Position numbers and translations under genes: made by a program. A model generated the notes under the pieces. It saw only the letters and a program-made list of their open reading frames with translations. It did not search any database and was not told the DNA's origin. Positions 11,102 to 56,309 of a stretch of 64,000 nucleotides of DNA are shown piece after piece (position 1 is the stretch's first letter; each line of letters starts with the position of its first letter). The DNA is from Methanosarcina sp. (lineage in GTDB: Archaea; Halobacteriota; Methanosarcinia; Methanosarcinales; Methanosarcinaceae): the NCBI RefSeq assembly GCF_049706645.1, contig NZ_JBNAKP010000019.1:153-64152 (forward strand), written 5' to 3'.

Positions 11102-11479
11102 ATGGTTAAAATCGAATCCGAATGCATTTCCAGAAAGAGGTGCTTTCTGTATACCATTCTCCTGTTTATCCTTGCAGGCATTTTTGAGATAGGGGGAGGC
11201 TACCTTCTGTGGCTGTGGCTACGTGAAGGCAGGGAACTTATTTTTGCATTTTCAGGGGCAATTATCCTGTTTTTATACGGAATCGTGCCCACTTTCCAGC
11301 CGTCTTACTTCCACAGGATATATGCAACTTATGGTGGCATTTTTGTTGTTATGTCCCTTTTATGGGGCTGGATCTTCGATAAAATCCCTCCAGATACCTA
11401 CGATCTCATAGGCGCCCTGATTATTCTCATCGGAGTGTCAATTATTTACTACTGGCCGAGAGAGGATGATAATAAGTGA
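11102..11479 (+). CDS. YnfA/UPF0060 family 4-TM membrane protein, copy 1
   Basis: [20 protein letters not shown]; TATA (TTTATATA) at ~11068 suggests a near-leaderless start at ATG 11102. Confidence 0.88.
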
Positions 11480-11805
11480 TTGATCCTGCTATTTCTCTTG
11501 CTCTGTTTTTTCTGGCTGCCCTTTTTGAAATCGGAGGAGGCTACCTTGTCTGGCTCTGGTTAAGGGAAAATAAAGGGGCAGTCTTCGGGCTGCTCGGAGG
11601 ACTGATACTGGCGGTCTACGGGATAATCCCCACCTTCCAGCCCGCACATTTCGGCAGGGTTTATGCTGCCTACGGAGGAATCTTTATTGTTTCATCCCTG
11701 ATCTGGGGAGCCCTTGTCGATAAGAAAAACCCCGACAAATATGAGATAATAGGGGCATTGATCGCACTTGCAGGTGTGCTGATAATGTTCTATATGCCTC
11801 GCTAA
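11476..11805 (+). CDS. YnfA/UPF0060 family 4-TM membrane protein, copy 2
   Basis: [22 protein letters not shown]; GTG start overlaps the copy 1 stop (GTGA). Confidence 0.9.
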
Positions 11806-11906
11806 CGGGTCAGTGTACGGGAAAGGGCAAGAAGGAAAAGAGAAAAAGGTAGGAGGTCCAGGGTTTACCCCTAACTCTTTTTACTTAACTGAATAAACCT
11901 TTTTTC

Positions 11907-20770: not shown

Positions 20771-22351
20771 TTACGCCTGGCTCTCAACTGCACTATCCGG
20801 TTCCGGGTTCAGGAAGCCCGGTTCGATGCCTGGTTCAATGGTTATATCTTCATACTCTTCGGCGTACGGTTCGCCTGGAGCCATTTCTTTTACTGCTGCT
20901 TTTTCTGTTCTCTCTGATTTTTTCTCTAACTTTTTCTTTGATTCTATTGCTTCGGGTTTCAGAATCCGTTGCCTGACAGCTTTCCAGACAGGGCTGTTGA
21001 TAGAGGCGTCCACCTCCTTCGCGAAGTTTACAAAGCCGTCAAAACCTTCGAACTCCACCACCCTGTCGTGGTTGAAATCACAGAAAGCAACACCCAGCTT
21101 GTATGCGATAAATCTCTCTTTTACCCCTGCAACCATGAGGTCGGCTTTCTGTTTCACGAGCAATTCGGCAAGCTCAAGAGGATTTGCATCATCCACAATA
21201 ACTGTGCCGTCCCTTACCGAATAACTGATCTGCTCGTAATCCTCTTTTTTCCCGGTCTGGGTCCCGATAATGACTACTTCCATTTCCAGTTCCGAAAAGC
21301 CTTTGATAAGCGTGAGAGCTTTTGCAGGCCCTCCCATGTAGATGGCGGCCTTTTTTCCCCTGACCCTTTCCCGAACCCCGACGATTTCAGGCATTATGCG
21401 GTTTGTTTCGGTTTCCAGGATTTTTTCGGCTTTTTCTTTCATAGCTTCAGAGCCAAAGTAATCCGCAGTTTTTCGCAGGGCCAGAGAGATATCTTCGATT
21501 CCGAAGAAACTTACGTTTAAATACGGGACCTCAAACTCTTCCTGCATCCATTTTGCAAGATACATCATGGACCCGCTGCACTGGACAAGATTAAGGTCGG
21601 CTTCGGCGGCTCTTGAGATGGATTTTGCAGTCGAGTCCCCTGTCATTGAGACTATAACCTCGATTCCCATTTGCTCAAAGAGAGGCTTTATGAGCCAGAC
21701 GTCTCCGGCCACGTTGAAATCCCCTAAAATGTTAATCTTCGGCTTTATGGTTTCAGTAGGCCTCAGGCTTTTTTTTGCAGTTCCGTCCTCCTGAGGTCTT
21801 TTGATCAGCTTTTTTAAGGCGTCACAGGCAGCCTTGTACCCGTCGGACTTGTTTCCTTTGAAACCTTCGGACTTTACGGGAAGTACCGGGATATTGTGCG
21901 TCTTGCTTGCTGTTTTGCATACGGAATCAAGGTCGTCTCCGATAATTCCTACAATGCATGTGGAATACACGAAGACCACCGGGGGATGGTAAATGCCCAC
22001 CAGTTCGTCGATTGCGTTTGAGAGTTTTTTCTCTCCTCCGAATACGACATCGATCTCTTTCATATCCGTGCTGAAACTGCTGCGGTTCGTTTCAAGCCCG
22101 CTGGATTTTGCACCCCGAATATCCCAGGTATAGCCTGCACAGCCGATAGGGCCGTGAACCAGATGGACGGCATCTGTTACGGGGTTTAAGACAACCCGGG
22201 CTCCCGAATAGACGCATGCCCGCTGGCTGATGGCTCCTGCAAGGGAGTTGTTATCGCAGGCAAGAGGAACTACCTGCCCCTTTTCCTGCTTTCTGGTGAT
22301 GTATGGTTGCCTTTCTTCGAGAGTATCCACTATCCCGGTTTTCTCAATCAT
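20771..22351 (-). CDS. nifE: Nitrogenase FeMo-cofactor scaffold NifE
   Basis: SQRACVYSGAR, HGPIGCAGY, YSTCIVGIIGDD, NLVQCSGS; ATG 22351 is better spaced from the GAGGGG RBS than GTG 22360. Confidence 0.94.
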   Translation of the reverse strand: MIEKTGIVDTLEERQPYITRKQEKGQVVPLACDNNSLAGAISQRACVYSGARVVLNPVTDAVHLVHGPIGCAGYTWDIRGAKSSGLETNRSSFSTDMKEIDVVFGGEKKLSNAIDELVGIYHPPVVFVYSTCIVGIIGDDLDSVCKTASKTHNIPVLPVKSEGFKGNKSDGYKAACDALKKLIKRPQEDGTAKKSLRPTETIKPKINILGDFNVAGDVWLIKPLFEQMGIEVIVSMTGDSTAKSISRAAEADLNLVQCSGSMMYLAKWMQEEFEVPYLNVSFFGIEDISLALRKTADYFGSEAMKEKAEKILETETNRIMPEIVGVRERVRGKKAAIYMGGPAKALTLIKGFSELEMEVVIIGTQTGKKEDYEQISYSVRDGTVIVDDANPLELAELLVKQKADLMVAGVKERFIAYKLGVAFCDFNHDRVVEFEGFDGFVNFAKEVDASINSPVWKAVRQRILKPEAIESKKKLEKKSERTEKAAVKEMAPGEPYAEEYEDITIEPGIEPGFLNPEPDSAVESQA

Positions 22352-22535
22352 CTCTTTCACTCCCCTCTGCTTCTGTTTCCAGGTTTGCAGCGGCGGTTTT
22401 CCATTTCTCCCGTTTTTATGTTATCAGTTTTTAAGTTCTCGGTTTTAACTTCCCGGTTTTGCTTTTAGGTTTAAAACTCCGTATTTTTCAACCTCTGCAT
22501 TCTTCCGGGAATCAGTTATCTTAAGGCCAGGCTCC

Positions 22536-33285: not shown

Positions 33286-33358
33286 CGCCGCTTGCAGGGC
33301 TCGAACCTACGACATTCTGGTTAACAGCCAGACACTCTACCAACTGAGTTAAAGCGGC
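33286..33358 (-). tRNA. tRNA-Asn(GTT), copy 2
   Basis: GCCGCTTTAACTCAGTTGGTAGAG...CTGTTAA...GGTTCGAGCCCTGCAAGCGGCG; full cloverleaf, no encoded CCA. Confidence 0.97.
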
Positions 33359-33433
33359 TCTCTGACGGGAAAGCGGTTCTTGGTCTTACCCTCGAATCTT
33401 CTTATACAAGAGATTCTTTGGATATAAAGTTTA

Positions 33434-33508
33434 TGGGCCTGACCGGATTTGAACCGGTGACCGCTCGGTTATGAGCCGAGCGCTCTAACCTGACTGAGCT
33501 ACAGGCCC
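33434..33508 (-). tRNA. tRNA with CAT anticodon, most likely tRNA-Ile2 (agmatidine)
   Basis: GGGCCTGTAGCTCAGTCAGGTTAGAGCGCTCGGCTCATAACCGAG...GGTTCAAATCC...GGCCCA. The GGGCC acceptor stem and CTCGG/CCGAG anticodon stem resemble archaeal Ile2 rather than Met tRNAs. Confidence 0.9.
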
Positions 33509-33619
33509 TTATTGATTTTATAAAGCTATTAATAGCTTTTAGTATGGCTTTAATAATAAAGTTTTTGCACATGTATTTTTCTATTCCGGAAAGAGTAGTA
33601 AAAAAATGCAAAATTTTTA

Positions 33620-33692
33620 CGCCGCTTGCAGGGCTCGAACCTACGACATTCTGGTTAACAGCCAGACACTCTACCAACTGAGTTAAAGCGGC
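33620..33692 (-). tRNA. tRNA-Asn(GTT), copy 1
   Basis: Sequence identical to 33286-33358. Confidence 0.97.
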
Positions 33693-40117: not shown

Positions 40118-40603
40118 TCAGAATTCCGTGTTCCAGAGTTTATCCCCTACATGGGTTATTGACTTTATGGCTTTACCTGAAGTAGCTTCGACCATCTCCG
40201 TCCCTCCCATAAGGGCTTTCCCGATTGCAAGAGGTTTTTGATGAGTCTCTTCCACTATGATTACAAGGTCCCCTTCTTTTATTTCGGAGTCTGCAGCCAC
40301 GACTCCCGGAGCCATTATGTCCGCGCCGTTTGAAACAAAACGGATAGCTCCTTTATCAACGGTTACAACACGCTTTTGAAGTCCCATCTCAAGAGCTCCG
40401 CGGACGGTAGGGAAAAGATGTCCTTCGATTTCGAAAAGCAAAGGCTTGCCATCCACAAGGATAACGGAGTATTCCTCAAGGGTGATTTTTTCCAGAGTTT
40501 TATTTTCCAGCGCTGACATCTCTTCGCCGAAAGTGGACACAAGGTCTTTCAACATTTTATTCCTGATATTCTTTCTCAGCTGAACTCTTGACTTTACTTT
40601 CAA
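40118..40603 (-). CDS. PUA-domain RNA-binding protein (DUF1947/MCT-1-like)
   Basis: FPTVRG, VTVDKGAIRFVSNGADIMAPGV, LAIG, HVGDKLW. Confidence 0.88.
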   Translation of the reverse strand: MKVKSRVQLRKNIRNKMLKDLVSTFGEEMSALENKTLEKITLEEYSVILVDGKPLLFEIEGHLFPTVRGALEMGLQKRVVTVDKGAIRFVSNGADIMAPGVVAADSEIKEGDLVIIVEETHQKPLAIGKALMGGTEMVEATSGKAIKSITHVGDKLWNTEF

Positions 40604-40805: not shown

Positions 40806-41960
40806 TTACTCAAGTTCTACAAAGAGCACTGCAAGTAACACAAGGGCACTTCCAAAAAATACGGCCTCATAACCGAAGGGCTCCAGGAAGAAGCTTCCAA
40901 AAATCGGGCCCAGCCCAAGCCCCGCATAAATTCCAGTATTAAAAAGCCCCATCGCAAAGCCGCTGGAGCTGATCCTGGAAACGGCTGTAATTAGTCCTAT
41001 GACTGCGGTTCCTCCTCCTGCCCCTATCAGGAAGAAAGCCAGTAAGGGCAACTTTACCGAGAGAAAGATCCCTGCTGCTGCGAGAATTACTCCTGTCCTT
41101 ATTATCTTTTTAGAATTGATGTTTGCCCTGCCTGCAATCAGGGAACTCAGCATTGCAGCCAGATAGGAAGCTGAAATTGCCAGTCCGATTTCGGGTTTTG
41201 TCAGGAAGCCAGCACTGTAATCAGTGTAGTTTGCAGTTAACAGGCCTGTGGCTCCATAAAGAAGCGCTGTAATTCCCCAGATCTTCCCGAAATCGGTTTT
41301 AAACAGGATTTCCCTGGCTTTTCCCATGTAATTTTTCAGTTCGGGAAGTAAAGAGGTGTCCTGCTGATTTCTTACAGGCTTTTCACTCTCTGGAAGCGTA
41401 AGCTTCTTCTCTCTTCTGTTCGGAGAAAGCAATTCTCCGGCTTCCGATAGAAGGAGAATGCAGGAAAGGCCTGCCAGAAATGTAAAGCTGATTATTGCGG
41501 TTTTAATCCCAAACTCGGCAAGCATTCCAGAGAAGAACACACCTGCAGCCAGCCCGGCATTTAGCAAAAAGTTAAATTCCCCAAGACTTTGCTGGCTGTC
41601 CTCCCATTCTGCAATTACAGAGAAAGCTGCAGGAAAAAAAGCACCGCATCCCACTCCTTCTAGAAACCTGGAAATTCCAAGAATCCACGGGCTGTCCGAA
41701 AATGCGATAAATAAACCTGAAAAGACAGTCAGTAGCATTCCGAATCTTATCACCTTCAGGTTTCCGATCCTGTCTGCCAGGATTCCGAGGGGCACGAGGG
41801 CAAGCAGGGCTCCTATAAAATATCCGGAAAATAGAAGGGCTGAAATCGCAGAACCTCCGCTGTCTCCTCCAGCAAGTTCTGGAAGAACAGGGATTATTGC
41901 GTTTGAGAGGCCCTGGAGCGCAAAAACTGACGAATAGAGTGCTAGTTTTTTGAGGTTCAT
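40806..41960 (-). CDS. MFS transporter, paralog 1
   Basis: Motif A GILADRIGN, SRFLEG; 12-TM pattern. Confidence 0.88.
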   Translation of the reverse strand: MNLKKLALYSSVFALQGLSNAIIPVLPELAGGDSGGSAISALLFSGYFIGALLALVPLGILADRIGNLKVIRFGMLLTVFSGLFIAFSDSPWILGISRFLEGVGCGAFFPAAFSVIAEWEDSQQSLGEFNFLLNAGLAAGVFFSGMLAEFGIKTAIISFTFLAGLSCILLLSEAGELLSPNRREKKLTLPESEKPVRNQQDTSLLPELKNYMGKAREILFKTDFGKIWGITALLYGATGLLTANYTDYSAGFLTKPEIGLAISASYLAAMLSSLIAGRANINSKKIIRTGVILAAAGIFLSVKLPLLAFFLIGAGGGTAVIGLITAVSRISSSGFAMGLFNTGIYAGLGLGPIFGSFFLEPFGYEAVFFGSALVLLAVLFVELE

Positions 41961-42076
41961 AGGCTTTTCGATTTTATGTGTTCAGCCCTATACGGATTTT
42001 GTACTCAGTGCTTATTTTCCCTGGATTCTGGAAACTACTCTTATTTCAAAAAATTACTCTATTTCTGAAAACTGCT

Positions 42077-42114
42077 CTTTGCTCTTACTTCTAAGCTTTG
42101 CTCTTACTTCTAAG
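42077..42114. repeat. 19-bp tandem repeat x2 between the MFS genes
   Basis: CTTTGCTCTTACTTCTAAG at 42077 and 42096, inside a longer degenerate repeat tract (~42030-42150). Confidence 0.7.
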
Positions 42115-42271
42115 AACACTCCGATTTTTAAAACTTATTCTTATTTCTAAAAATTCTTCCTGAATATCAGGAAATTTCGTGGAATAAATATCTTACGCAA
42201 TATCCCGTGCTATCCAGTTGAAGGGAACTTACTGGCATAAAACCTGGCTAAGTACCTTTTTGAAGGGTCTT

Positions 42272-43390
42272 TCACTCTCTCAGTATAAGGGCACCTGCTA
42301 GGATACAGCCATTTGCTATAAACAGTTTTTCAAAATCCATAAAATCTGTAAAAATCCCTGCAATAATCGGGGCAAGAGAAAGCCCTGCATAGATAGTCGT
42401 GTTAAAAAGCCCCATTACAAGACCCCTGTCAGCATTCATTCTGGCAACAGCCAGGGCAAAACCTACAGTTGCGACCCCGGACCCTCCACCAAGGCTTGAG
42501 AATCCCAACAAAGGATATTTTATTGCAGAGAGGGCACCAAGGACCGAAAATCCTATCCCTATTCGAATTAAGGTTTTCTCCTTTACTTTGAAGTGCCCTG
42601 CAAGCAGAGAGGTAACCATTGCACAGACATAAAGGCTGGAAATCGAGATTCCAAGCTGGGCTTTTGTTATAGTGCCCAGGCTGTAGTCAGGATAGTAGGC
42701 TACAAGCACTCCAATGGCTCCGTTAAGCAGGAAAGAACTGAGCCAGAGCCCTGAGTTGTCACCGCTCAGGAGCTCTTTAATTTCTCTGTAAGGCTTTCTG
42801 AAAAGGCCAGAGCCTTTTAATGAACCCGGTCTTCCTTCGCACTCAGGATGAACCAGTCCTCTGTACCTGGAAAGCAGGTACACGGTCAAAAGGAAAGCGA
42901 TGACTGTAAAGATAAGGATTGCTCCTTTCAGGTAGGTGTCTGCCAGCAACCCTGAGAGAAAGGCTCCTGCTGCCAGGCCGGCATTGAAAAGAAAAGTAAA
43001 TTCCCCTATATAGCGCCCTGGATTACTGAGTTTTGATAATATGGTAAAGGCAGCCGGGAAAAAAGCTCCACAGGCAGAACCTTCTATAAACCTCGCAATC
43101 AAAAGAATCCAGAGGTTTTCGAAGAACAGGATAGTCAACCCTGAAATGGCCGTCAGAACGATACCCAGCCCTATGAACTTCAAATTTCCGAACCTGTCCG
43201 CGAGAATCCCAAAGGGGAGCATTGTTCCCAGGGCTCCGAGGAAATAGGCTGAAAAGAGCAGGCTTGAGGCAAATCCTCCAGAAGAGCTGTTACTCAGGCT
43301 CGCAAGCTCCGGAAGGATAGGGATAACAGCGTTAGAGAGCCCCATTATCGTAAAAGCTGCTCCGTAAATCAAAAGCCTGTGAAGGTTCAT
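42272..43390 (-). CDS. MFS transporter, paralog 2
   Basis: GILADRFGN, ARFIEG; N-terminus clearly homologous to paralog 1 (GLSNA(I/V)IP(V/I)LPELA). Confidence 0.88.
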   Translation of the reverse strand: MNLHRLLIYGAAFTIMGLSNAVIPILPELASLSNSSSGGFASSLLFSAYFLGALGTMLPFGILADRFGNLKFIGLGIVLTAISGLTILFFENLWILLIARFIEGSACGAFFPAAFTILSKLSNPGRYIGEFTFLFNAGLAAGAFLSGLLADTYLKGAILIFTVIAFLLTVYLLSRYRGLVHPECEGRPGSLKGSGLFRKPYREIKELLSGDNSGLWLSSFLLNGAIGVLVAYYPDYSLGTITKAQLGISISSLYVCAMVTSLLAGHFKVKEKTLIRIGIGFSVLGALSAIKYPLLGFSSLGGGSGVATVGFALAVARMNADRGLVMGLFNTTIYAGLSLAPIIAGIFTDFMDFEKLFIANGCILAGALILRE

Positions 43391-43673
43391 AGCACTAAAA
43401 ACCCTTAATTAAGTATATAGTTTCTTGTCGCCATTTCTTGTCGCAGCAGCATTCTGAAACTCGCCTTCGGAAGGCTAAAATGCCTGAAACGAACCTTTAA
43501 AGGCTTCTTCAGCCGTTCGCAGGATTTTTATCTATTGCACAGTTATATAATGCGTACTAAGAAAATTGAATCTGGCTGCCATGCCTGGATTCTTACTATA
43601 TCATGACGCTTTTATTATAATAAATCGGATAGAATGCATAGCTATTTATATAATTAGTTTGAATAGGGGTAAT

Positions 43674-43812
43674 GTGAGTAATGTGAGCGGGAAACTTTTT
43701 TCACATACCATACCCCCCACTCCCCATATGACCCCCCACTCCCCAACCCGCTCACACTACTTCTACTTAACAATCTAATATTTAACAATCGAATTCGTTT
43801 TTTTACTTTTTT
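43674..43812 (+). ncRNA. Candidate intergenic sRNA
   Basis: TTTATATA at 43645-43652; 15-bp stem 43677-43691 / 43747-43761; loop with ACCCCCCACTCCCCA twice; oligo-T tracts from 43797. Confidence 0.4.
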
Positions 43813-44165
43813 AGGCTCTTAGCTCGCTGTTTCTTTATAATTTTCTTTTTATTTCTTTAGAGATTCGCTCGATTTTTTTAGACTTTTAGTTCACTTTTTA
43901 GACTCTCAACTCCCTTTTTACTTCACTGCTGATGAAGAAAGAAGAGATGAAGCAAAAAGATCAAGAAGAGCTTGTTTTGACGAAGATCCTTTTTTACAGG
44001 AACTTACTTTCACAGAAACTCTCCTTCATCCAGAGAAAACTAACCAGCTCACGCTGTTTTGAGTTCGGAGTGACAATTTAAAAAGTAATGATTTAAAAAT
44101 AGAAAATTAGATGAAATTTGAGAAAGGCTCAGGGCTCCTCATGAGATTTTTGGATTTCCCTTTTA

Positions 44166-46181
44166 TCAGAAGAGGCCTCTGCCTATCATAAGGGAAGAGA
44201 AGAGGATTGCTACCATATTTACCACTTTAATCAGGGCGTTAAGGGCAGGTCCGGCAGTGTCCTTGAAAGGATCACCTACGGTATCCCCGATTATTGCAGC
44301 TTTATGAGCTTCAGAGCCTTTTCCTCCGTGCGCTCCGTCTTCAATCAGTTTTTTTGCATTATCCCATGCCCCTCCGCCGTTATCCATCAGGAGGGCAACC
44401 ATAAACCCTACCACTATGAGGCCTATCAGGAGTCCTGCAAGTGCCTTCGGCCCCAGGAGGAAGCCTACCAGCAAAGGCACAAGTATGGCAAGAAAACCTG
44501 GCATTGCCATTTCATGAAGTGCAGCTTTTGTGACTATGTCAACACAGCGCCCGTATTCCGGCTTTGCAGTCCCTTCCATGATTCCGGGGATTTCTCTGAA
44601 CTGCCTTCGGACCTCATTTACGATTTCGAACGCAGCCTTTCCCACTGCGCTCATGGTTACTGCGCTGAATACAAAAGGCAGCAGTGCTCCAAGCAGCAGT
44701 CCTGCAAGCACCACCGGATCATCAAGGTTCAGGGCCTGGTCTCCAAGGTTTACCTTATTCCGGTAGTCCGCAAAAAGAGCAAGTGCACCAAGAGCAGCCG
44801 AGCTTATGGCATATCCTTTGGTAACGGCTTTTGTAGTGTTCCCCACAGCATCCAGGGCATCCGTAACTTTCCTGACCTCGGCTGGAAGTTTTGCCATCTG
44901 GGCGATTCCTCCGGCGTTGTCGGTAATCGGGCCGTAAGAATCCAGAGCAACTATCATGCCTGTAGTTGAGAGCATTGCAACGGCGGCAATAGCAATCCCA
45001 TAGAGACCGGTTTCGGGATCGGCTGCTCCGCCCACTACATAATACGATGCAAGAATTCCGACTACGATTACTACGGTAGGCATAAGCGTACTTTCAAAAC
45101 CTATAGACAGCCCTGAGATGATATTGGTTGCAGCCCCGGTTTCGGAGGAGGATGCAATGTTTTTCACAGGCCTGTATTTTGTAGAAGTATAGTACTCGGT
45201 GATAATAACCATGAGCACCATGATAATAATGCCTATGAGTGTCGCATAATAAAATCTCAGGCTCCCCATCAGGGCATCGGTAATAAAGTAAAATGCAACC
45301 AGGCTGATTGTCGCCGAACCGGCTACACCCTTATAAAGAGCCCGTATAATGCTTCCTTCTTTTCCTAATTTAACAAAAAATATGGATATGATGGATGCAA
45401 AGATCGCGGCTGAACCCAGTATTAGGGGATAAAGGATTGCGTTTTCGTAAATGCCGGTTATAAGGGAGCCGAGCAGCATTGCAGCCAGAGAAGTTACAAC
45501 ATAGGTTTCGAAAAGGTCGGCTCCCATACCTGCGCAGTCTCCGACGTTATCGCCTACGTTGTCGGCGATTACGGCAGGATTTCTCGGGTCGTCTTCAGGA
45601 ATTCCTGCCTCGATCTTACCTACAAGATCCGCGCCAACATCCGCAGCCTTTGTGAAAATTCCTCCGCCTACTCTGGCAAAAAGGCTTATCAGGCTGGCGC
45701 CAAAACCGAACCCTACAACCAGATTCACATCCTTATAGAGAATATAAAATCCGCTTGTCCCGAGCAGTGCAAGCCCTACTACGGCAAGCCCTGTGACCGC
45801 TCCCCCTTGAAATGCAACCGCTAAGGCTTTTTCAAGTCCGCTTGAGGCCGCGTGAGCAGTCCTGACATTTGCTCGAACTGAAACACTCATCCCAATATAG
45901 CCGGCAGCGGCAGAACTGATAGCTCCTGCCAGAAAACCTGCTGCAATTTTAAGTCCGTCATCAAGCAAAAAGAAAATTAAGAGCGCAAGAATGATCGAAA
46001 CTATTGTGATCGTTCTGTATTGACGGTTTAAGTAAGCCCTCGCCCCCTCCTGAATTGCGCCGGCAATTTCCTGCATCCTTTCGTTTCCGGTCTCTTCTTT
46101 GAGGACACTGTTTGCAAAAAACGCAGCGAAGGCCAGACTTATGATGCCTGCTAAAGGGGCGACGAATATTAAACCTTCCAT
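44166..46181 (-). CDS. hppA: Membrane pyrophosphatase, K+-independent H+-pumping type
   Basis: [48 protein letters not shown]; GNTTKA (Lys) determinant. Confidence 0.93.
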
Positions 46182-46524
46182 AAATTTCCTGTCCTCTGGT
46201 TCTGATATCCACTCAGATTTTTATTTTTTCATTCTTCAAATAATCCCTGTCCTTTAGCTTAACTTTCCTCTCGTTTCTCCAGTATAATTTATATTTATTT
46301 GATATTATAATGATGTGTACGCAATAACTTGGTGTTGTTCTGAAGTATTATTCTGAGTTTTTAAGCCTCGATTCTACGAAAGTGCAGATAATTATTTTTT
46401 ATATAAACTTTTGAACTCTTCTACCTGTTACGTTGTTTCTTTAATTGTTTTTACGAGAAACTCCAACTTTTTATCGCAGAATACACTTTTCTTTGCCAGA
46501 AGATTCTAAATAAATTCGCGGAAG

Positions 46525-46640
46525 ATAGGGATGGACAGTAGGGGTAAAAGTAGGGGTAAAAGTAGGGATGAACAGTAGAATAGAATGATAAAATGAGTTA
46601 TACATCTAAAATAAAATAAAATAAAATAAAATAAAAAAAG
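46525..46640. repeat. 12-bp repeats (AGTAGGGGTAAA) followed by (TAAAA)x6; oligo-T terminator-like on the minus strand
   Basis: Exact units at 46537 and 46549 with degenerate neighbours; TAAAA run at 46607-46636, downstream of the second hppA. Confidence 0.65.
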
Positions 46641-46764
46641 ATCTAAAAAATTTCCGGATATTAAAATAAAAAAATATCCGGAAGACCGAAAAACGAGTTC
46701 TAAATCTGTATCCTTTAGTAGAGGAAGCCTTACAACATCTGGTGTTGTAAGGCTTGATCTCATA

Positions 46765-49257
46765 TTATTCTTGATCAGCAGCCGATTCCTTCATTACTTC
46801 TCTGCTGGGATTCTCATTTCGTAGAGGGATTCTCATTCCGTAGAATGAACGCCAGACAAAGAATAGCGCAATCAAAAGGAATATGCCGCCTACATACGGA
46901 GCTATATTTCGGAATGACTCGGAGATAGCTATTTCCATGGCTAAGAGGCCAAACAGGGTAGTGAATTTGATGATCGGATTCAGGGCAACTGATGAAGTAT
47001 CTTTAAATGGATCCCCTACGGTATCACCTACCACTGTTGCTTCGTGTAAAGCTGTGCCTTTTTCCTGAAGGTCTACTTCCACTACCTTTTTGGCATTGTC
47101 CCAGCAACCACCGGCATTTGCCATGAACACGGCCTGGAACAGTCCGAATACTGCAATGGAGATCAGATAGGAGACAAAGAACGCCACGGAGTCTTTCCCG
47201 GCTGTGGGAGCAGAGAGGCAGGAAAACGCCAGAGTAAAGGAGAATATGGCGATAAATATATTGAACATGCCCTGTTGCGCATACTGAGTGCAGATTTTTA
47301 CCACTTCTTTTGACTTTTCAGTGGCTGCTTTCTGGCTGGCTTTTTCATCAAGCTGTATGTTCATCTTGATATATTCAACTGCCCGGTAGGCTCCGGTAGT
47401 TACGGCCTGGGTTGATGCCCCGGTAAACCAGTAAATTACAGAACCGCCTGCTAAAAACCCGAAGATAGTATAGGGATTGAGCAGGGTCAAAATTTCTTCC
47501 GGTTGTACTCCGAGAACGTCCTTAATGACTAGAATCAAAGAGAAGATCATGGTTGTGGCGCCAACTACAGCTGTGCCTATTAAGACCGGTTTGGCTGTGG
47601 CCTTAAAAGTATTTCCTGCTCCGTCGTTTGCTTCCAGATAGTGTTTGGCTTTATCGAAATCCGGTTTGAAATTGAATTCTCTCTGGATCTCCTCCTTTAT
47701 TTTCGGAATGGTTTCTATAAGCGACAGTTCGTAAATGGATTGGGCATTATCCGTTACCGGTCCGTAACTGTCAACTGCTATGGTAACAGGGCCCATGCCC
47801 AGCATCCCGAAGGCCACAAGGCCGAATGCAAATATGGAGGGATATATCATTATCTCGCTCAAACCATACCCGCTGGCATAATAGGCAACGAACATGAGTG
47901 CGAAGAATACCATACCGATCCAGAACGCGCTGAAGTTACCTGCAACCAGTCCGGACAGGATGTTAAGAGATGGGCCTCCTTCGCGGGAAGCTTTGACGAC
48001 CTCGGCTACATGCAGGGAATTCGGGCTGGTAAATACCTTGGTAAATTCGGGAATTAAAGCCGCTCCCAGGGTTCCACAGCTGATTATCACTGAAAGCACC
48101 AGCCAGAGCTTCTGCAACTGGGCAGGTACGTCGGCGGAACCCGGGCCCAGCAGGTAATAGCTTACGGCAAAAGTTACTGCAATGGAGAGAATGGAAGTGA
48201 TCCATACCAGGCTGGTAAGAGGCTGCTCAAAATCAAAATCATCTTTGCTGCCGAATCTTGCCTGGCTGAGTGCCCTGTTGATATAGAAAGATGTTACGGA
48301 GGTAATGATCATGAGTACACGCATGACAAAGATCCAGGTAAGCAGGGTTCCGGTCAGGGCAGGCTGCACAGCCAGAACTATAAAGGAGACGAGGGCGACT
48401 CCGGTTACACCATAGGTTTCAAATCCGTCTGCGGTCGGTCCTACACTGTCACCTGCATTATCTCCGGTGCAGTCGGCAATAACACCTGGATTTCTCGGGT
48501 CGTCTTCTTTTATTCCAAAAACGATTTTCATCAGATCGGAGCCTATATCGGCGATCTTGGTGAATATCCCGCCTGCAATACGTAAGGCGCTGGCTCCAAG
48601 GGATTCTCCTATTGCAAAGCCTATAAAGCTTGCTCCGGCCAATTCTCTGGGAACAAACAGCAATATAATTAACATCATTATTAACTCAACGCAGACCAGA
48701 AGCACGCCTATGCTCATCCCCGCATCGAGAGCGATATTTAACAGTTTCAGGGGTTTCTTTTCCAGGGATGCGAATGCTGTCCTGCTGTTAGCCAGGGTAT
48801 TCATACGAATTCCATACCACGCGACGCTGTAAGAACCCAGTATCCCTAATATAGTCCAGGCCAGGATGAGCAATACCCCGCTAAGAGGCATTTTCTGAAG
48901 GAAGCCAAAGTAAAAGGCTATACAGAAGCCGATAAAAACAAATAATATGCACAGCAGCTTACCCTGCTGGATAAGATAGGTTTTACAGGTCTCGTAAATT
49001 ATGTTGGCCACATCCAGCATGGACTGATGGGCCCTGATTCTTCTCACCCTCGTAAACTGGTAATAACCGAACAGCATGCCTAATACACAGACCACGATAC
49101 CCCAGAGCAGCAAGTTATTTTGCCCCTGGCTTAAATTCGGAATTTTAAGATTCGCTTCACTGGCAGCTGCTATTGCCGGTGTTAACGACAGTATGGCCAG
49201 GCTAAACAGGCCTTCGAGCGTTGCCTTGACCACCCTATTTTTCATTACGATCTCCAT
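46765..49257 (-). CDS. hppA: Membrane pyrophosphatase, long divergent subfamily
   Basis: [55 protein letters not shown]; 830 aa with a signal-like N-terminus. Confidence 0.9.
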   Translation of the reverse strand: MEIVMKNRVVKATLEGLFSLAILSLTPAIAAASEANLKIPNLSQGQNNLLLWGIVVCVLGMLFGYYQFTRVRRIRAHQSMLDVANIIYETCKTYLIQQGKLLCILFVFIGFCIAFYFGFLQKMPLSGVLLILAWTILGILGSYSVAWYGIRMNTLANSRTAFASLEKKPLKLLNIALDAGMSIGVLLVCVELIMMLIILLFVPRELAGASFIGFAIGESLGASALRIAGGIFTKIADIGSDLMKIVFGIKEDDPRNPGVIADCTGDNAGDSVGPTADGFETYGVTGVALVSFIVLAVQPALTGTLLTWIFVMRVLMIITSVTSFYINRALSQARFGSKDDFDFEQPLTSLVWITSILSIAVTFAVSYYLLGPGSADVPAQLQKLWLVLSVIISCGTLGAALIPEFTKVFTSPNSLHVAEVVKASREGGPSLNILSGLVAGNFSAFWIGMVFFALMFVAYYASGYGLSEIMIYPSIFAFGLVAFGMLGMGPVTIAVDSYGPVTDNAQSIYELSLIETIPKIKEEIQREFNFKPDFDKAKHYLEANDGAGNTFKATAKPVLIGTAVVGATTMIFSLILVIKDVLGVQPEEILTLLNPYTIFGFLAGGSVIYWFTGASTQAVTTGAYRAVEYIKMNIQLDEKASQKAATEKSKEVVKICTQYAQQGMFNIFIAIFSFTLAFSCLSAPTAGKDSVAFFVSYLISIAVFGLFQAVFMANAGGCWDNAKKVVEVDLQEKGTALHEATVVGDTVGDPFKDTSSVALNPIIKFTTLFGLLAMEIAISESFRNIAPYVGGIFLLIALFFVWRSFYGMRIPLRNENPSREVMKESAADQE

Positions 49258-50444
49258 TTAGCCGATCACTTCTCTCATCACATTTTTGAAAGATAAATTG
49301 GGATTCTCTATTATTAAAGACACTTTTCGACGAAATGTAAGCAATTATTTTTATGTTTTTGTGCAGTTTGCGGGGAATTAGGGTCTTTTGAGTAGGATCG
49401 AGCCTCTATAATTGCCCTTCCCCAGCAAACTTCAAATTTAAAATATATTTTTATCCTGGAAGATAACCCAAATTAGACTTTCAGGTTTTTCCCATTTTGT
49501 TTATGAGCTTAGATATCTGCATTAGTAATTATGCGCCTTATAACAGGATTCCCCTAACGGAAAGGGTAGCATGAGGCTATTTGTGACGTAGTCCCTGTTG
49601 CACTCTAAGAGTAATATATCTATTTTGTTACAGTGTACGTCACGTTGATTAGTGTTATTAGTAGTGATAATTGGTCACGATCAGCAGAGTCAGCTCTATA
49701 GCTAACTTCTCGATGTTCATGAGTCTCGAATCTATTTTTAGTCTGGATGCGGTTTCGTCGAAATATATTTTAATGTAACTAAATTTGAGCCGTTAAAGTG
49801 TCATTTTCGACAAGGCGTAAACAGTTATTTTTTATATAAGCTTTTTTGCACCTTTGTCTGATCGACAACCTCTAAGTTATTTTTACGATAATTCCTCTCT
49901 TTCTACTAATAGTATCTGTTTTCCTATCGAAGAACCCAAACTACAGCCACAATTATGATCTGCTGATCAGGCAATATAAAAAGAAAGAACTGTAATAAAA
50001 AGTTTGCTGAGAGGCAAACCCCGGACATTCTATCTTTTAACGGGTTCGTTCTAGGTTTTTTCAATTAAATTGCTATAAATTATAAAGATATCGGTAAAAT
50101 TCTGATGGAAAAAAGTAATTCTATTTGTAATTTGTATTTTTCAGTTATTTATATACTAAATCAATAAGGTAATAAGTTTCCGGCTTCCTAAACGGGAATG
50201 TAAGAAAACGAAGTTTTTTATTCAGATTCCATAATAATAAATTTTCAAAGAGCATGTTGGTAAAAAAAGGCTAAAGAAACGTTATTTATAAAACTAGCTG
50301 CATAATACGGTGAAAGTAGATTTATATAAGATAGCCATACTACGTGTATGCTCCTATTGAAAAACAGGTTCATTCAGAAATTGAATTGGGCAGTTTCTGT
50401 AGACTCCAACTTAAAATATCTTTATCAGTTTAGAAACACTAAAT

Positions 50445-50557
50445 TACTATAAATTAATTATCATAAAGTGGATTATTATAAATTAAACTATTATACATTA
50501 AACTATTAAAATTAAGTTATTGTAAATTAAATTATTATAAACGAATTTATTATAATG
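50445..50557. repeat. ~15-bp AT-rich tandem repeat upstream of the third hppA
   Basis: TATTATAAATTAAAC-like units at 50445, 50474, 50489, 50504, 50518, 50533 and 50548. Confidence 0.7.
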
Positions 50558-50620
50558 AATACTTCCAGTACTCAGCATCAAAATAACTTGTGTGATATTT
50601 TCCGGAGGACGGTTAAATTT

Positions 50621-52654
50621 ATGGATGTGTTAATCTACCTTGCACCAATATGTGCCCTTATTGGTCTGATTTTTGCAGGTATATCCTATAAAAATGTCCA
50701 AAAAGAAGGCGAAGGTAATGACGTTATCAAAAAAATTACTGCATCAATTCACCATGGCGCCATGGTTTACCTTAACAGGCAATACCGTGCAATCGCTGTT
50801 TTCGTAATTTTATTTTCAATTATAATCGCATCAATCCTTCCAAATGGGATTCTTACGGCATTATGCTTTGTCTTCGGCGCAGTGTTCTCCGCAACAGCCG
50901 GGTATGCAGGGATGCTCACAGCTACCATTGCAAACGGCAGAACAACAAATGCTGCCACCAGGGGGATTGGCCCTGCATTCAGGGTTTCGTTTGCGTCAGG
51001 CACGGTTATGGGGATGAGCGTTGTAGGTCTCGGTCTGCTTGGTTTATCGGCTTCATTTATAATTATTACAAATTATTATACAAGTCTCGATTTTACTACA
51101 GTTATGAATATCGTTGCAGGCTTTTCACTTGGAGCCTCGTCTATTGCTCTTTTTGCCAGAGTAGGTGGCGGAATTTTCACAAAAGCTGCAGATGTCGGGG
51201 CTGACCTTGTAGGCAAGGTAGAAGCCGGGATTCCTGAAGACGACCCGAGAAATCCTGCTGTAATTGCCGACAATGTAGGTGATAACGTCGGAGATATTGC
51301 AGGCATGGGAGCCGATCTCTACGAATCTTATGTCGGTTCTATCGTCGCTACAATGCTTCTTGCAGCATCAACAGCAGCAATGACCTTTCCTGGCATTTCA
51401 GTTGAGAACGCTATTCTGGTTCCACTGCTGATTTCAGCGGTTGGAATTCTTGCATCCGTTGCAGGTACATTTTTTGTCCGTACAAAGAAGACCGAGGCCT
51501 CGGCAATCCATATGGCTTTTAATCTGGGGTTGATTGCTGCAATCGTTCTTACAGTCATTGCCTCATATTTCATTACATCTCAGCTTCTCGGAGAATATGG
51601 ATTGAAGGTCTTCTTTGCAAGTGTTGCGGGGCTTATCTCCGGTTTCCTTATAGGACAGATCACAGAGTACTACACATCGTATGATAGAAAACCGACCCGT
51701 ACAGTTGCAGATTCGTGCTTAACCGGTTCGGCTACAAATATTATCACAGGTTTTGCAAAGGGAATGGAATCCACCCTCTGGCCGGTTATTATCATCAGCG
51801 CTACAATCTATATTTCCTACCTGCTTTCCGGCCTCTACGGCATTGCTATTGCAGCCGTGGGAATGCTTGCAACGCTGGGGATATCACTGTCTGTCGATGC
51901 ATATGGTCCTGTAGCTGACAATGCAGGCGGCATTGCAGAAATGTCTCACCAGAAGAAAGAGGTACGTGAGATTACCGATACTCTTGATGCGGTAGGAAAC
52001 ACGACTGCTGCTATGGGTAAAGGTTTTGCAATCGGTTCGGCAGCGCTCACCGCACTTGCCCTCTTCTCTTCATATGGCATTGCAGTAAATCTCACTGCTA
52101 TCGATGTTATGAACCCTAACGTGTTCATAGGGCTTATCATCGGTGCAATGCTGCCTTTCCTCTTCTCATCAATGACCATCCTGGCCGTCGGAAAAGCCGC
52201 AGGTGAAGTCGTTATGGAAGTGAGGAGACAGTTTAAAGAGATAAAAGGCCTCATGGAAGGCAAAGCTGATCCTGACTACGGCAAGTGTATTGCAATCTCA
52301 ACGCACTCTGCCCTGAAAGAGATGATCGGACCCGGTGTACTCGCAGTTGTTTCGCCCCTTGCCGTCGGGCTTATACTCGGGCCTGGCGCACTTGGAGGAC
52401 TGCTCGCAGGCTCTGTAGTTTCGGGTTTTATGCTCGCAATTACAATGTCTAACGCAGGCGGGTCGTGGGACAATGCGAAGAAATTTATTGAAGCCGGAAA
52501 TTTCGGCGGAAAAGGTTCGGACGCACATAAAGCAGGTGTGACTGGCGATACTGTGGGAGATCCTTTCAAGGATACAGCAGGTCCGGCAATCAACATTCTC
52601 ATAAAGCTTATGAGTATTGTAGCGGTTGTGTTTGCACCTCTGTTTATCGTCTGA
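50621..52654 (+). CDS. hppA: Membrane pyrophosphatase, K+-dependent, probably Na+-pumping
   Basis: [36 protein letters not shown] (Ala and Gly determinants); ATG 50621 behind GGAGGA. Confidence 0.92.
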
Positions 52655-52662
52655 TATCCGTC

Positions 52663-52682
52663 TTTTCCTTTTTTTATTTTTT
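52663..52682 (+). terminator. Oligo-T terminator after the third hppA
   Basis: TTTTCCTTTTTTTATTTTTT just after the stop codon. Confidence 0.55.
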
Positions 52683-53025
52683 ATAATGGTGCCGGTGTTC
52701 CTATATTTTCTATAATCATTGTTTAATCTCTGCAGCAGGCACTCCAGTCCTTAAATAAACCTCCTGTTTATAACTGCGATAAATTATTTACTGTAGTTTT
52801 CACAGATAAGAGTTTTAATCTACTGATCTCTGAAAGGAACACGCTTTCCTATTTGAGGGAAATCAATTAAAAACTTTTCGTTTTGCAGCGGTCCGAAGCG
52901 GATGCTCAGATCTGTTTAAGGGGAAAACAGCAAGAATGGATGAATTAAAAGGTCAAAGATTACTGTCTGTGCTTTCCGATCAAAGCGGGAGATCACAGGT
53001 TAAAGCTTGAACAGGTCAGGAGAGA

Positions 53026-53484
53026 TTAGTTAACTCCCCTTACCTGCAGTAGCTGGAACTCGATTTCGTCCGGGACTGTAGCCAGGAATATAAATGTGTT
53101 GTACCCGAGTTTCTGGACTTCTTTAATCGCACTTGCCTGAGCTTCGGTCAAATCCCTTGAGTCGCTTACGATGCAGAATGATTTCCGGTTTCCTGTGTTG
53201 ACAAGGAAATTAAATACACTTCCGTGAGTATTCAGGAACGCAACCAGATTTTTAAGTTCTTCCCAGGTACTGCACATGTGAATGTTCTTGGATCCCATGT
53301 TTTCCACGTACCAGTCCCTGCTCACGTAAGAGTAGGACGCATACTGTTCATTCAGTTCATCGTGAGCTTTGAGGATTTTGTTAATATCCTTCCTCAAGTT
53401 TATCCATTTCCAGCTCTGCGTTGTGAAATAACGGGCTGCCACTATCTCAAAGATAGCCTGCTTATCTTCATTTTCGAGTCTCAT
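53026..53484 (-). CDS. Hypothetical protein
   Basis: 152-aa ORF with GTGGA RBS-like sequence, 36 bp downstream of the DHPS-like gene on the same strand. Confidence 0.7.
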   Translation of the reverse strand: MRLENEDKQAIFEIVAARYFTTQSWKWINLRKDINKILKAHDELNEQYASYSYVSRDWYVENMGSKNIHMCSTWEELKNLVAFLNTHGSVFNFLVNTGNRKSFCIVSDSRDLTEAQASAIKEVQKLGYNTFIFLATVPDEIEFQLLQVRGVN

Positions 53485-53520
53485 TTTTCCACGTCTTTAT
53501 TTTGTCTGCGTTTCTTATGC

Positions 53521-55002
53521 TCAGAACACATCGTCCTGGGCATAGCTTCTATTAAACTGCAGGGCAAGTTCGGCTTTTTCCAGTTCCCTTCCCAGATATG
53601 CGGCATGATCCAGGCGGGAGACCAGTTCCAGTTCAAGCAGTGTGTCCATAACCTCCCTGGCACTTTTTCCCACAATTGAGGCTTTCTCGTGTTCGGCAAC
53701 AATCAATCCGCCATTTCCACTTATGCGGTCCGGTACTGTACGGATGCGGATTGGGCCTGCAGGGTCTACACGCCAGCCTTTCGAAGGTCTGGCCTGAATC
53801 GCATTTTCCGGGAGCGGAAAATCAGGCCGCCTGCGTTTTTCTTTAATGCAGAGAAGGTCAAGCCCCAGGTCTTTTGGAGAACTTTCCCTTATGCTGGAAA
53901 GCATCATCATCTCGGAAGCCCTTTTAAGCTCCCTGATAGAACCCTGTGCCTTGTCACTGAACTCGGGGGTGAAAAGGATGCTTGCTCCGGCTTCTGCTCC
54001 GATTCCACAGAGTGTGGCATTGACTCCTATGGTATCCACATCCATAAGTTCAGTGACATTGCCAGCTCCGAGGAATACTGGAATCTCGGGGTACATCCTG
54101 TGAAACTGATGGTAGCGTACGATGGATTCGGTAATGTCGTGTCCCACAGGATCAAGAACAGGATCAGCTATAATTTTTTCAATTCCAAGCCTGCGGGCAG
54201 CTTTGACGTTCCTGATAAGGCTCTCCAGGCTTCTTTCCTCATCCGGGATTATAACGGCAGCAATCCCTGCCCTGGCAATTGTAGGGCCTGCAGTCTCAAG
54301 ATTCGTGCTATTGAGGCTCAGGACAAGGTCAGCTCCTGCTTCTACTCCTTCTTTTATCAGTTCAGGGTCAAGGGTATCTATGCTTATCGGAGCTTCTGTA
54401 AAGGCTTTTGCAAGGGATACAGCCCTTTTAGCATGCTCCGGGAGGGTATTCAGGGTAGCCCCTAGATCGATTATATCTGCTCCCCGGGCGATAAAAGCTT
54501 CGATTTTTACCTGGAGTATCGGAGCATCCATTTCCAGGGCTCCTACAATTTCTCCCATAACCTTCATACGAGCCTTTCCCCCGATTTTTACACCTCTGAG
54601 TGTAAGGGGTGAGGAGGCTTCTTCTTCGGTTTTACTTATTAACTCGAGGGCCATCTCCTTCCGAACATCAGCAAGAAGTTCACAGGCAGGGATTTTTTTG
54701 GAAAACTCGATTTTTCCGGCAAACGGGAGTACAAAACCAAGATCATAGGCATGCTTTGGTCCAAGCCGGATTTTACACCCCAGTTCTTCAGAAGCTTTTG
54801 AAAAATCTCCTGCTACAAGCCCTGGAAGCAGAATAAGGTCATAATATTTCGAAAAACCGGCTTCCTGAAATGTTTTAATCAGTTTTTTAGGGGTAATAAA
54901 GGCGGCAATATCAATATCGGCTACGAGGATGTCGGCTTTTTCCCCGATTGCTTTCCTGACGGTATTTTCCGCAAGCCGCCCTGTTGCAATCAAAATCTTC
55001 AT
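53521..55002 (-). CDS. Dihydropteroate synthase-like protein (pterin-binding TIM barrel plus DUF4346-like C-terminus)
   Basis: MKILIATGRLA, GPKHAYDL, GADIIDLG, ISIDT, IADPVLDP, GNVTELMDVDTIG, LDHAAYLGRELEKAE. Confidence 0.85.
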   Translation of the reverse strand: MKILIATGRLAENTVRKAIGEKADILVADIDIAAFITPKKLIKTFQEAGFSKYYDLILLPGLVAGDFSKASEELGCKIRLGPKHAYDLGFVLPFAGKIEFSKKIPACELLADVRKEMALELISKTEEEASSPLTLRGVKIGGKARMKVMGEIVGALEMDAPILQVKIEAFIARGADIIDLGATLNTLPEHAKRAVSLAKAFTEAPISIDTLDPELIKEGVEAGADLVLSLNSTNLETAGPTIARAGIAAVIIPDEERSLESLIRNVKAARRLGIEKIIADPVLDPVGHDITESIVRYHQFHRMYPEIPVFLGAGNVTELMDVDTIGVNATLCGIGAEAGASILFTPEFSDKAQGSIRELKRASEMMMLSSIRESSPKDLGLDLLCIKEKRRRPDFPLPENAIQARPSKGWRVDPAGPIRIRTVPDRISGNGGLIVAEHEKASIVGKSAREVMDTLLELELVSRLDHAAYLGRELEKAELALQFNRSYAQDDVF

Positions 55003-55127: not shown

Positions 55128-56309
55128 TTAATTTATAAAGTCAATTATTGACTCATCATGTTTCTTTCTAAGGGCCCCTGTCCCAGTCCTTAATCGGTCT
55201 GCAGGCGTCATTTTTCCGAACCTTCTCTCCTGCATGGGGTCAGTTTCGGCTCTTGATTCCAGAATTCCGGCTCCTGCCTGAGGGCCCAGAATCTGGGCAG
55301 ACTGCACACCTGTCATGATGGCCATTACCCTGACCTTACCTTCATAATCCTCCCTGATCCTCGCACCCCAGATGACGTTTGCGCTTGGGGAGAGTTCGTA
55401 GGTAAGCATGGATGCAATCTCCTCGGCTTCCTTGAGGCTCAGGTCAGGCCCGCCGGTTACATGCACGAGGCTTCCGGTTGCACCCTTGTAGTCAACATCA
55501 AGCAGGGGGTGGTTTAAGGCGGTCCGCACTACTTCAGTGCTCTTGTCCTGGTTTTTCGACTCACCTACGAGCATAACTGCAACCCCGCCGCAGCTCATAA
55601 TAGTCCTGATGTCGGCGTAGTCAAGGTTTATCAGGGAGGGTACTGTGATCGTCTCCGTAATCCCTTTTACGGTCTCGGCAATCAGCTGGTCCATTACGGA
55701 AAAAGCCTGGTCGATAGGAAGATTCGGCACGTAATTAAGCAGCCTGTTATTGTCCAGGACAATTACGGTGTCGGCTGCCCTGCGCAGGTCTTCAAGGCCT
55801 TCTTCGGCTTTGAAAATCCTGGCTCTCTCAACTCTGAAGGGGCTGGAAACCATTCCTACGACGATTGCTCCCTGCTCCTTTGCCACTTCGGCAACTACAG
55901 GGGCAACCCCTGTCCCGGTACCTCCGCCTAAACCTGCAGTAATGAAGACAAGGTCAACGTCCTTTAACACTTCTTCAAGGGTACCCCTTGCAAGTTCCGC
56001 AGCCTTCTTTCCTGTCTCGGGGTAACCGCCTGCTCCAAGTCCCCGCGTGAGAGTTTTTCCCACGAGGATCTTCTTGTCAGCTCTCACATTGTCAAGGTGC
56101 TGCTTGTCGGTATTGATACAGACCGTTTCTGCGCCTTCGATTCCTATGTTATAAAGACGGTTTACTGTGTTATTCCCGGCCCCCCCGCATCCGACAATCA
56201 TGATTCGCGGTTGCCCGAATTCTTCGAAGTCGTCATCAGAGGAGGAATTCTTCCGATATTCCTTCTCTTTTTCGCTGAATTTCATTGCTTCCTGTACTAT
56301 AGATTGCAA
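55128..56309 (-). CDS. ftsZ: Cell division protein FtsZ
   Basis: [40 protein letters not shown]; TTG start behind GAGGGG. Confidence 0.96.

Follow-up and report, generated by a model that had tools for sequence, protein, structure and literature searches.

Methanosarcina mazei reportedly carries a divergent pair of membrane-bound pyrophosphatase (mPPase) genes, Mvp1/Mvp2, which Baumer et al. are said to have described in 2002 as encoding a 671-amino-acid (aa) K+-independent-type protein and a 676-aa K+-dependent-type protein around a long TC/AT-rich spacer. A separate group, the divergent Na+-regulated H+-PPases, is attributed to Luoto in 2015; its members reportedly share 23 to 34% identity with canonical mPPases while keeping the catalytic residues, the characterized enzymes are said to come from Chlorobium limicola and Cellulomonas fimi, and one archaeal member is reportedly mentioned. 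To our knowledge, this divergent subfamily has so far been characterized in two bacterial enzymes only. Here we describe a 64,000-nucleotide (nt) stretch of a Methanosarcina genome (contig NZ_JBNAKP010000019.1, positions 153 to 64,152; called the window below) in which analysis of open reading frames (ORFs) and protein profiles located three intact mPPase genes, g1, g2 and g3, lying side by side and belonging to three different subfamilies. Like the Mvp1/Mvp2 locus, the window has a divergent K+-independent/K+-dependent pair (g1 and g3) around a long spacer, but unlike that locus it has a third gene of 830 aa (g2) between the pair, so that the spacer is split into segments of 1363 and 583 bp. 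The comparisons reported here suggest that g2 has a bacterial origin, that it entered the genus long ago, and that the set of three is an old arrangement from which most relatives have lost members.

The PF03030 (H_PPase) profile covers all three proteins end to end (profile positions 1 to 645), scoring 913 bits for g1 (2e-274), 606 bits for g2 (1e-181) and 904 bits for g3 (7e-272). The best NCBIfam model differs for each gene: NF001959 for g1 (1161 bits), NF001960 for g3 (1012 bits), and for g2 the equivalog model NF001950 (807 positions; cut-off, 826 bits), at 1390 bits. The g1 and g3 proteins are 52% identical to each other, and g2 shares 29% identity with g1, 26% with g3, and 24 to 29% with canonical mPPases overall. 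The catalytic motifs of helices 5, 6, 11, 12, 15 and 16 are complete in all three proteins, which have in common GGIFTKxADxGxDL, DDPRNPxVIADxxGDNxGD, ADxFETY/ADLYESY, D[SA]YGPxxDNA, DxxGNTxxAxxK and GGxWDNAKK. An earlier note on this DNA, made from the letters alone, had placed three mPPase genes of different subfamilies here, and the ORFs, the PF03030 matches, the motifs that it quoted and the two spacer lengths all bear this out.

The K+ switch separates the genes. According to PMC9408878, citing Belogurov and Lahti 2002, Lys/Thr as opposed to Ala at this switch governs K+ dependence. The g1 protein has Lys at position 12.46 and Thr at 12.49 (within residues 444 to 456), g2 has Lys at 12.46 in GNTFKATAKP, as well as IADCTGDNAGD, and g3 has Ala at 12.46 and Gly at 12.49. 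The semiconserved Glu at 6.53 is present throughout, in ADLFETY (g1), ADGFETY (g2) and ADLYESY (g3). Table 1 of PMC6882861 gives this Glu position for the divergent Na+-regulated H+-PPase class and also lists E6.53 in some K+-dependent H+-PPases, so the g3 signature alone leaves its ion unfixed. Among solved structures, the best match to g1 is the K+-independent H+-PPase of Pyrobaculum (8b37; 551 bits), which is also the best, though weak, match to g2 (193 bits), and the best matches to g3 are the K+-dependent Vigna and Thermotoga enzymes. The subfamily assignments made previously thus hold on the Ala/Lys signature, the Glu position and the top-scoring NCBIfam model and solved structure alike, and the three genes are members of described mPPase subfamilies rather than a new kind of machine. 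The g3 ORF, from 50555 to 52654 on the plus strand, spans 699 aa; translation probably starts at the ATG at 50621 (MDVLIYLAP...), because GGAGGA lies 11 nt upstream and orthologues are 675 to 677 aa long.

Although g2 shares only 21 to 27% identity with the solved structures, its fold is recognizable. An AlphaFold2 model of the protein (predicted local distance difference test score, 72.7; predicted template modeling [TM] score, 0.75) matches the Thermotoga enzyme TmPPase in Foldseek at an E value of 3e-25 and mPPase structures in general at TM-scores of 0.80 to 0.88, normalized to the target. The model shows the 16-helix mPPase core plus three additions. One of these is a low-confidence N-terminal hydrophobic segment resembling a signal peptide (residues 14 to 32, AAA|SEANLKIP), which is conserved in bacterial relatives and matches the extra N-terminal segment noticed earlier; the others are a pair of short inserted cytoplasmic helices at residues ~504 to 528 and a 17th, C-terminal helix at residues 786 to 807. 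In these three features g2 differs from the K+-independent H+-PPase of Pyrobaculum aerophilum (8b37; PMC10897367), with which both g1 and g2 share the K12.46 signature and to which the g2 model aligns at a TM-score of 0.87 to 0.88. Translation of g2 could alternatively begin at a second ATG (49245), giving a protein of 826 aa. The 17th helix is followed by an acidic 20-residue C-terminal tail, LRNENPSREVMKESAADQE (residues 811 to 830; alignment columns 888 to 908), which is found in the window, M. thermophila, M. barkeri and M. hadiensis and is absent from sequence P0037 and from nearly all aligned bacterial relatives.

The 120 best homologues of g2 all come from Methanosarcina (88 to 100% identity). 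Beyond these, a profile built from 39 metagenomic relatives of 72 to 87% identity matched proteins of Syntrophomonas wolfei, S. curvata, Syntrophothermus lipocalidus, Candidatus Formimonas warabiya, other Clostridia and one metagenome-assembled genome (MAG) of the Bacteroidales, and the contigs carrying g2 relatives range from 30 to 63% GC. A search of representative sequences returned mostly fragments, with a few full-length clusters at 62%, 43% and ~32% identity, the last from Armatimonadota. In a neighbor-joining (NJ) tree of 104 sequences (p-distance-derived distances, 100 bootstraps), the 29 Methanosarcina sequences form a single clade in 100 of 100 bootstraps, nested among bacterial (Firmicutes) sequences, and the sister of that clade is a contig (L113) whose gene neighbors are bacterial, among them polysaccharide deacetylase genes. 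The window protein is 85.5% identical to that of S. wolfei, and the words NSRTAF, NIALDAG and VFGIKEDD are common to Methanosarcina g2 and the Syntrophomonadaceae and are not found in other Clostridia. The earlier description of the long type as mainly bacterial agrees with both the named relatives and the tree. Because the Methanosarcina sequences are monophyletic within a bacterial radiation, a single transfer from a bacterium to an archaeon would be the simplest reading. Our literature search returned nothing relevant on a third Methanosarcina mPPase or on a link to Syntrophomonas. Some bacterial contigs carry two g2-type copies: in L119, which is Syntrophomonas-like by its similarity to the S. 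wolfei protein, they lie ~9 kb apart (10001 to 12367 and 21259 to 22365), and in L145 they are inverted (120 to 2531 on the minus strand and 5090 to 7501 on the plus strand).

The gene order around the locus is conserved across the genus. The order FtsZ, pterin-binding protein, 152-aa protein, PPase genes, two major facilitator superfamily (MFS) transporters, PUA protein, SepF and ZPR1 is maintained while PPase content varies; the FtsZ/pterin-binding/152-aa order holds in all the Methanosarcina loci that were examined, as well as in Methanolobus, and the MFS/MFS/PUA order is likewise kept in Methanosarcina. At this locus g3 and g2 occur together in the M. thermophila type, GCA_002506455, M. 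hadiensis and L098; g2 and g1 in M. barkeri Wiesmoor, L091 and L109; and g2 alone in L103, L178/L179 and L102/L111. The arrangement of M. mazei, with g3 and g1, is that of M. horonobensis, sp. T3 and sp. 2.H.T.1A.6. The full set was found in the window only among the loci scored, and also in the population of an independent freshwater-sediment metagenome (X6), so the intact triple is rare. Synteny was a check that the earlier note had proposed: M. thermophila, M. barkeri, M. hadiensis and many MAGs all carry g2 at this locus, and its position is identical in at least 10 other Methanosarcina lineages from both sides of the genus. Orthologues of g3 at the same position are 88 to 95% identical, and window g1 and g3 are 88 to 89% identical to the genes of M. 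horonobensis and sp. T3. For g1, orthologues of 79 to 81% identity extend to Methanolobus and Methanococcoides, and in Methanolobus zinderi g1 stands alone directly after the FtsZ, pterin-binding and 151-aa genes.

Several loci that lack an intact g1 retain decayed pieces of it downstream of g2, with differing deletion boundaries: 44 C-terminal codons with a stop codon in L097/L098, the last 141 to 150 codons in L105/L106, and several frameshifted pieces in L102/L111. Because these relics persist downstream of g2, the triple appears to be the ancestral Methanosarcina state, and the mazei-type and other two-gene states appear to be derived from it by loss. No g3 relics were detected in barkeri-type loci at an E value of 1e-3 or below. 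In the M. barkeri Wiesmoor locus (L084), a 125-aa NifH-like (Fer4_NifH) ORF fragment occupies the usual g3 site (8629 to 9006), and the first downstream MFS gene is split into pieces of 222 and 55 aa.

The age of g2 can be judged against its neighbors. A midpoint-rooted NJ tree of the FtsZ, pterin-binding and 152-aa proteins divides the loci into one group comprising sp. T3, M. horonobensis, M. hadiensis and L107 and another comprising the window, M. thermophila, GCA_002506455, L098, L103, M. barkeri and L102. Each group includes loci with g2, and the trees of g2 and of g3 split in the same way. Synonymous divergence (dS) of the window g2 is 0.60 from M. thermophila, 0.63 from M. barkeri and 1.19 from M. 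hadiensis, compared with 0.47, 0.44 and 1.10, respectively, for the pterin-binding gene and 0.56, 0.54 and 1.52 for FtsZ, and its GC content at third codon positions (GC3) is 0.52, inside the local range of 0.41 to 0.56. Because g2 occupies the same locus, has a congruent tree, resembles the flanking genes in dS and is native in GC3, the ancestor shared by the sampled lineages appears to have had it already, with vertical descent since, and g2 appears to be functional. Ratios of nonsynonymous to synonymous divergence (dN/dS) are 0.056 to 0.074 for g2, 0.04 to 0.11 for g1 and, against more distant relatives, 0.07 to 0.08 for g3; against the 97%-identical contig L094 they are 0.07 for g2 and 0.10 for g1. 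These values suggest strong purifying selection on all three genes in the window lineage.

Features of the mPPase locus and its surroundings (window coordinates; "." marks a divergent spacer)
Feature	Position	Strand	Description
g1	44166-46181	-	671 aa, canonical K+-independent-type mPPase, predicted H+ pump
g2	46765-49257	-	830 aa, long divergent mPPase, K+-independent-type Lys
g3	50621-52654	+	677 aa, K+-dependent-type mPPase
g2-to-g1 spacer	46182-46764	-	583 bp
Divergent g2/g3 spacer	49258-50620	.	1363 bp
TATA-like sequence	~46395-46407		TTTATATAAAAAA, ~215 nt upstream of the g1 ATG
12-nt repeats	46537-46567		AGTAGGGGTAAA, 2.6 copies
T-runs and (TAAAA)6	46607-46700		in g2-to-g1 spacer
Terminator-like hairpin	46720-46760		directly beyond the g2 stop codon, with T-runs behind it
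Degenerate second copy of promoter-like element	49324-49352		480 nt away
Promoter-like element	~49784-49845		~60 nt with TATA box, conserved, upstream of g2
Sequence within promoter-like element	49804-49840		TTTTCGAC..GTAAACAGTTATTTTTTATATAA
AT-rich tandem array	50440-50555		~eight 15-nt units, TAAATTATTATAAAT, 65 nt upstream of g3 start
152-aa protein	53026-53484	-	upstream synteny anchor
Pterin-binding protein	53521-55002	-	493 aa, upstream synteny anchor
FtsZ	55128-56309	-	upstream synteny anchor
PUA protein	40118-40603	-	downstream synteny anchor
MFS transporter	40806-41960	-	downstream synteny anchor
MFS transporter	42272-43390	-	second downstream synteny anchor
tRNA cluster	33286-33692	-	Asn(GTT), Met(CAT), Asn(GTT)

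The spacers contain several candidate control elements. In the segment between g2 and g1, the hairpin and T-runs after g2 and the TATA-like sequence ahead of g1 may serve as terminator and promoter, respectively. The (TAAAA)6 run interrupts the unitigs of the source isolate and is the site of a 122-bp deletion in the X6 population. Upstream of g2, the conserved promoter-like element of the 1363-bp spacer also occurs upstream of g1 in genomes without g2 (L095, ~9740 to 9800; L096, ~9800 to 9860). Because the element precedes g2 here and g1 there, we infer that g2 was inserted between g1 and its promoter and was later deleted in mazei-type lineages. The 1363-bp spacer, which contains no ORF longer than 46 aa, is ~80% identical over 1.2 kb to that of L098, with partial conservation in barkeri- and thermophila-type loci, and a search of the spacers against Rfam gave no credible match and no riboswitch-like element. 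The region of the AT-rich array is ~90 nt shorter in the collinear spacers of L098 and L081, and the array has therefore probably expanded in the window strain. The repeats 480 bp apart raised the possibility that the 1363-bp spacer had grown by an internal duplication of ~480 bp; this was rejected, since self-BLAST gave short matches only and the L098 spacer is collinear at 1.28 kb.

Transcript evidence comes from orthologues in four metatranscriptomes from anaerobic digesters, mapped on a thermophila-type locus (L101). There, g3 contigs span 7019 to 9105 (X41), 7113 to 9124 (X45) and 6954 to 9378 (X42), and g2 contigs start at 9578 (X38), 9594 (X42) and 9753 (X41) and end at 12521 to 12539 (X41 and X38) and 12884 (X42). 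Because the g3 and g2 contigs are separate, with an uncovered gap between them, the two transcripts are divergent and monocistronic in these orthologues, in line with the separate control of g2 and g3 that had been proposed from the spacers; g2 is thus not silent in these relatives. Depth is 11 to 35 for g2 versus 24 to 61 for g3. The g2 transcript has a 5' leader of 250 to 420 nt and, in two runs, a 3' end 25 to 43 nt past the stop codon, a position that matches the hairpin and T-runs after g2 in the window. In addition, contigs from soil, sediment and rice-paddy metatranscriptomes, 90 to 95% identical, cover most of the window g2. The g1 gene probably has a promoter of its own.

What the three pumps do can be predicted from their relatives. 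The K+-dependent enzyme of M. mazei has been shown experimentally to be a Na+ pump, according to PMC9408878 and PMC7438732, both citing Malinen 2007. The g3 protein resembles that enzyme in A12.46/G12.49, E6.53, length and genomic position, the last by way of mazei-type loci: its position and orientation match those in M. horonobensis, sp. T3 and sp. 2.H.T.1A.6, and it is 89% identical to the M. horonobensis and T3 proteins, so that likeness to M. mazei is by synteny. As the predicted positional orthologue of the M. mazei enzyme, g3 would pump Na+, and g1, from its family, would pump H+. The g2 protein appears to fit what has been published on the divergent Na+-regulated H+-PPases in its low identity to canonical enzymes (24 to 29%), its full set of catalytic Asp/Lys motifs, K12.46 and E6.53, and it comes, like them, from a mostly bacterial family. 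It differs in that its nearest relatives are Firmicutes (Syntrophomonadaceae), and its likeness to the class is one of motifs and identity. By analogy with these characterized divergent enzymes, g2 is most likely an H+ pump whose activity is modulated by Na+ and K+.

Two other explanations concern how the locus came about. The adjacency could be an artefact of assembly or binning that fused contigs of different organisms. Unitigs of the source isolate run (X1) do break at 46607 to 46636 and 50751 to 50780, and binning errors do affect g2, as a 93%-identical copy (P0012) carries a Desulfitobacteriaceae MAG label. Nevertheless, X1 unitigs joined by k-1 overlaps tile the window from 42000 to 54000, across all three genes, at an even depth of 78 to 83. 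The X6 metagenome holds a ~95% identical population with g1, g2 and g3 at similar depth, in which contigs link the MFS gene to g1, the spacer upstream of g1 to the region after g2, g2 to g3 (48964 to 51319), and g3 to the 152-aa and pterin-binding genes, and a 97%-identical Joint Genome Institute contig (L094) joins g2, g1 and MFS. Because the isolate unitigs tile evenly and X6 independently carries the same three linked genes, the region is not an assembly artefact, and we give that explanation next to no credence. P0012 itself lies on a 3.2-kb contig, for which mis-binning from Methanosarcina is more likely than a second transfer. The other explanation is that g2 was inserted laterally, and recently, into a mazei-like locus with two genes in this one genome, creating a new module of three pumps. 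The overwhelmingly bacterial family of g2, the existence of mazei-type genomes with g3 and g1 only, and the promoter-like element, which stands ahead of g1 there and of g2 here as a past insertion between g1 and its promoter would leave it, all speak in its favor. However, the monophyly of g2 at an identical site in so many other lineages, its flank-like dS and native GC3, and the g1 relics behind g2 in g1-less lineages make it very improbable that the insertion was recent. Of the earlier note's view of g2 as a lateral insertion, then, the bacterial ancestry stood, as shown by the phylogeny that it had suggested, and its statement that M. mazei has two mPPases agrees with the g3-plus-g1 content of mazei-type genomes, but an insertion recent and peculiar to this genome did not survive synteny, monophyly, dS and GC3.

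An explanation of a different kind is that the genes are largely redundant paralogues caught before loss, with no special switching and with one or two pumps sufficing. Every subset is found at the locus, g2 alone included, g1 has decayed independently at least three times, and words nearly identical to g1 were found in no RNA run searched, all of which would fit such redundancy. Against it, the three genes show the marks of purifying selection, the subfamilies differ in the residues of K+ dependence, and in M. mazei one of these enzymes transports a different ion, according to PMC9408878; on balance we regard redundancy as unlikely, though by far the most serious of these alternatives. Several points weigh against our own account, in which an old transfer of g2 was followed by differential loss and the pumps differ in ion and control. 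The missing g1 words are one of them, and the expression picture as a whole comes from relatives of the window strain, to which it would extend by analogy. The g2 tree is NJ, not maximum likelihood, and does not include the C. limicola and C. fimi enzymes, so the placement of g2 in their class is by proxy, through NF001950; the flank tree carries no bootstrap values. The locus census was seeded mostly with g2, which biases the frequencies of the combinations, and gene absence was scored at the locus and does not prove absence genome-wide. The ion specificity and the Na+/K+ regulation of g1, g2 and g3 are predictions.

With these points taken into account, the sequence of events that we favor, an old transfer with differential loss, would be as follows. 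The window strain is a Methanosarcina from the thermophila/barkeri side of its genus. Its g1, a canonical K+-independent H+-PPase, would be an old resident of the Methanosarcinaceae, to which g3, a K+-dependent Na+-PPase, was added divergently. Then g2 would have been acquired once, from a Syntrophomonadaceae-like Firmicute, and placed between those two genes before the Methanosarcina lineages sampled here split. All three genes would have been kept in the window, with other lineages losing g1, g3, g2 or two of them. The transfer of ack/pta from Clostridia to Methanosarcina (Fournier and Gogarten 2008, as cited in PMC12918732) was likewise a single acquisition of an energy gene from anaerobic Firmicutes by a Methanosarcina ancestor; g2 differs in being another gene, from another apparent donor family, that was later lost from part of the genus. 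Each gene would encode a homodimeric pump in which hydrolysis of inorganic pyrophosphate (PPi) drives cation export. Because g3 and g2 lie on separate divergent mRNAs in orthologues and g1 probably has its own promoter, the cell could feed the energy of biosynthetic PPi into a Na+ or an H+ gradient independently. Such routing of PPi energy into either gradient, which the earlier note had put forward as a switching module, would be reasonable because the organism uses both. Taken whole, we consider this history, together with the scheme of pumps and transcription, to be probable.

In wider terms, the ~85% identity between the Methanosarcina and Syntrophomonas proteins points to a clean interdomain transfer of an energy-conserving gene within anaerobic consortia, and the divergent mPPase subfamily gains an archaeal host that is genetically approachable. 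A more far-reaching picture can be offered only tentatively, and we are inclined to doubt that all of it will hold. A Syntrophomonadaceae-type divergent mPPase may have crossed into a Methanosarcina ancestor, perhaps from one syntrophic partner to another, given how similar the proteins still are, and may have become the most widely retained PPase at the locus, with several freshwater and digester lineages keeping no other there. On this view the genus would mix and match three pumps in nature, one for Na+, a canonical one for H+ and one for H+ that is sensitive to Na+, and their retention may track salinity and bioenergetic mode, with the window strain as the only known strain to carry the full set. 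If this is true, the occurrence of all subsets of the three pumps at one locus would amount to a natural experiment on pump retention versus habitat salinity and bioenergetic mode. One conserved locus in a single genus presents every pair, g2 alone and the full set of three differently coupled PPi pumps, and its comparative value lies in offering a ready system for studying the part of each pump in Na+ versus H+ economy, salt tolerance and low-energy growth.

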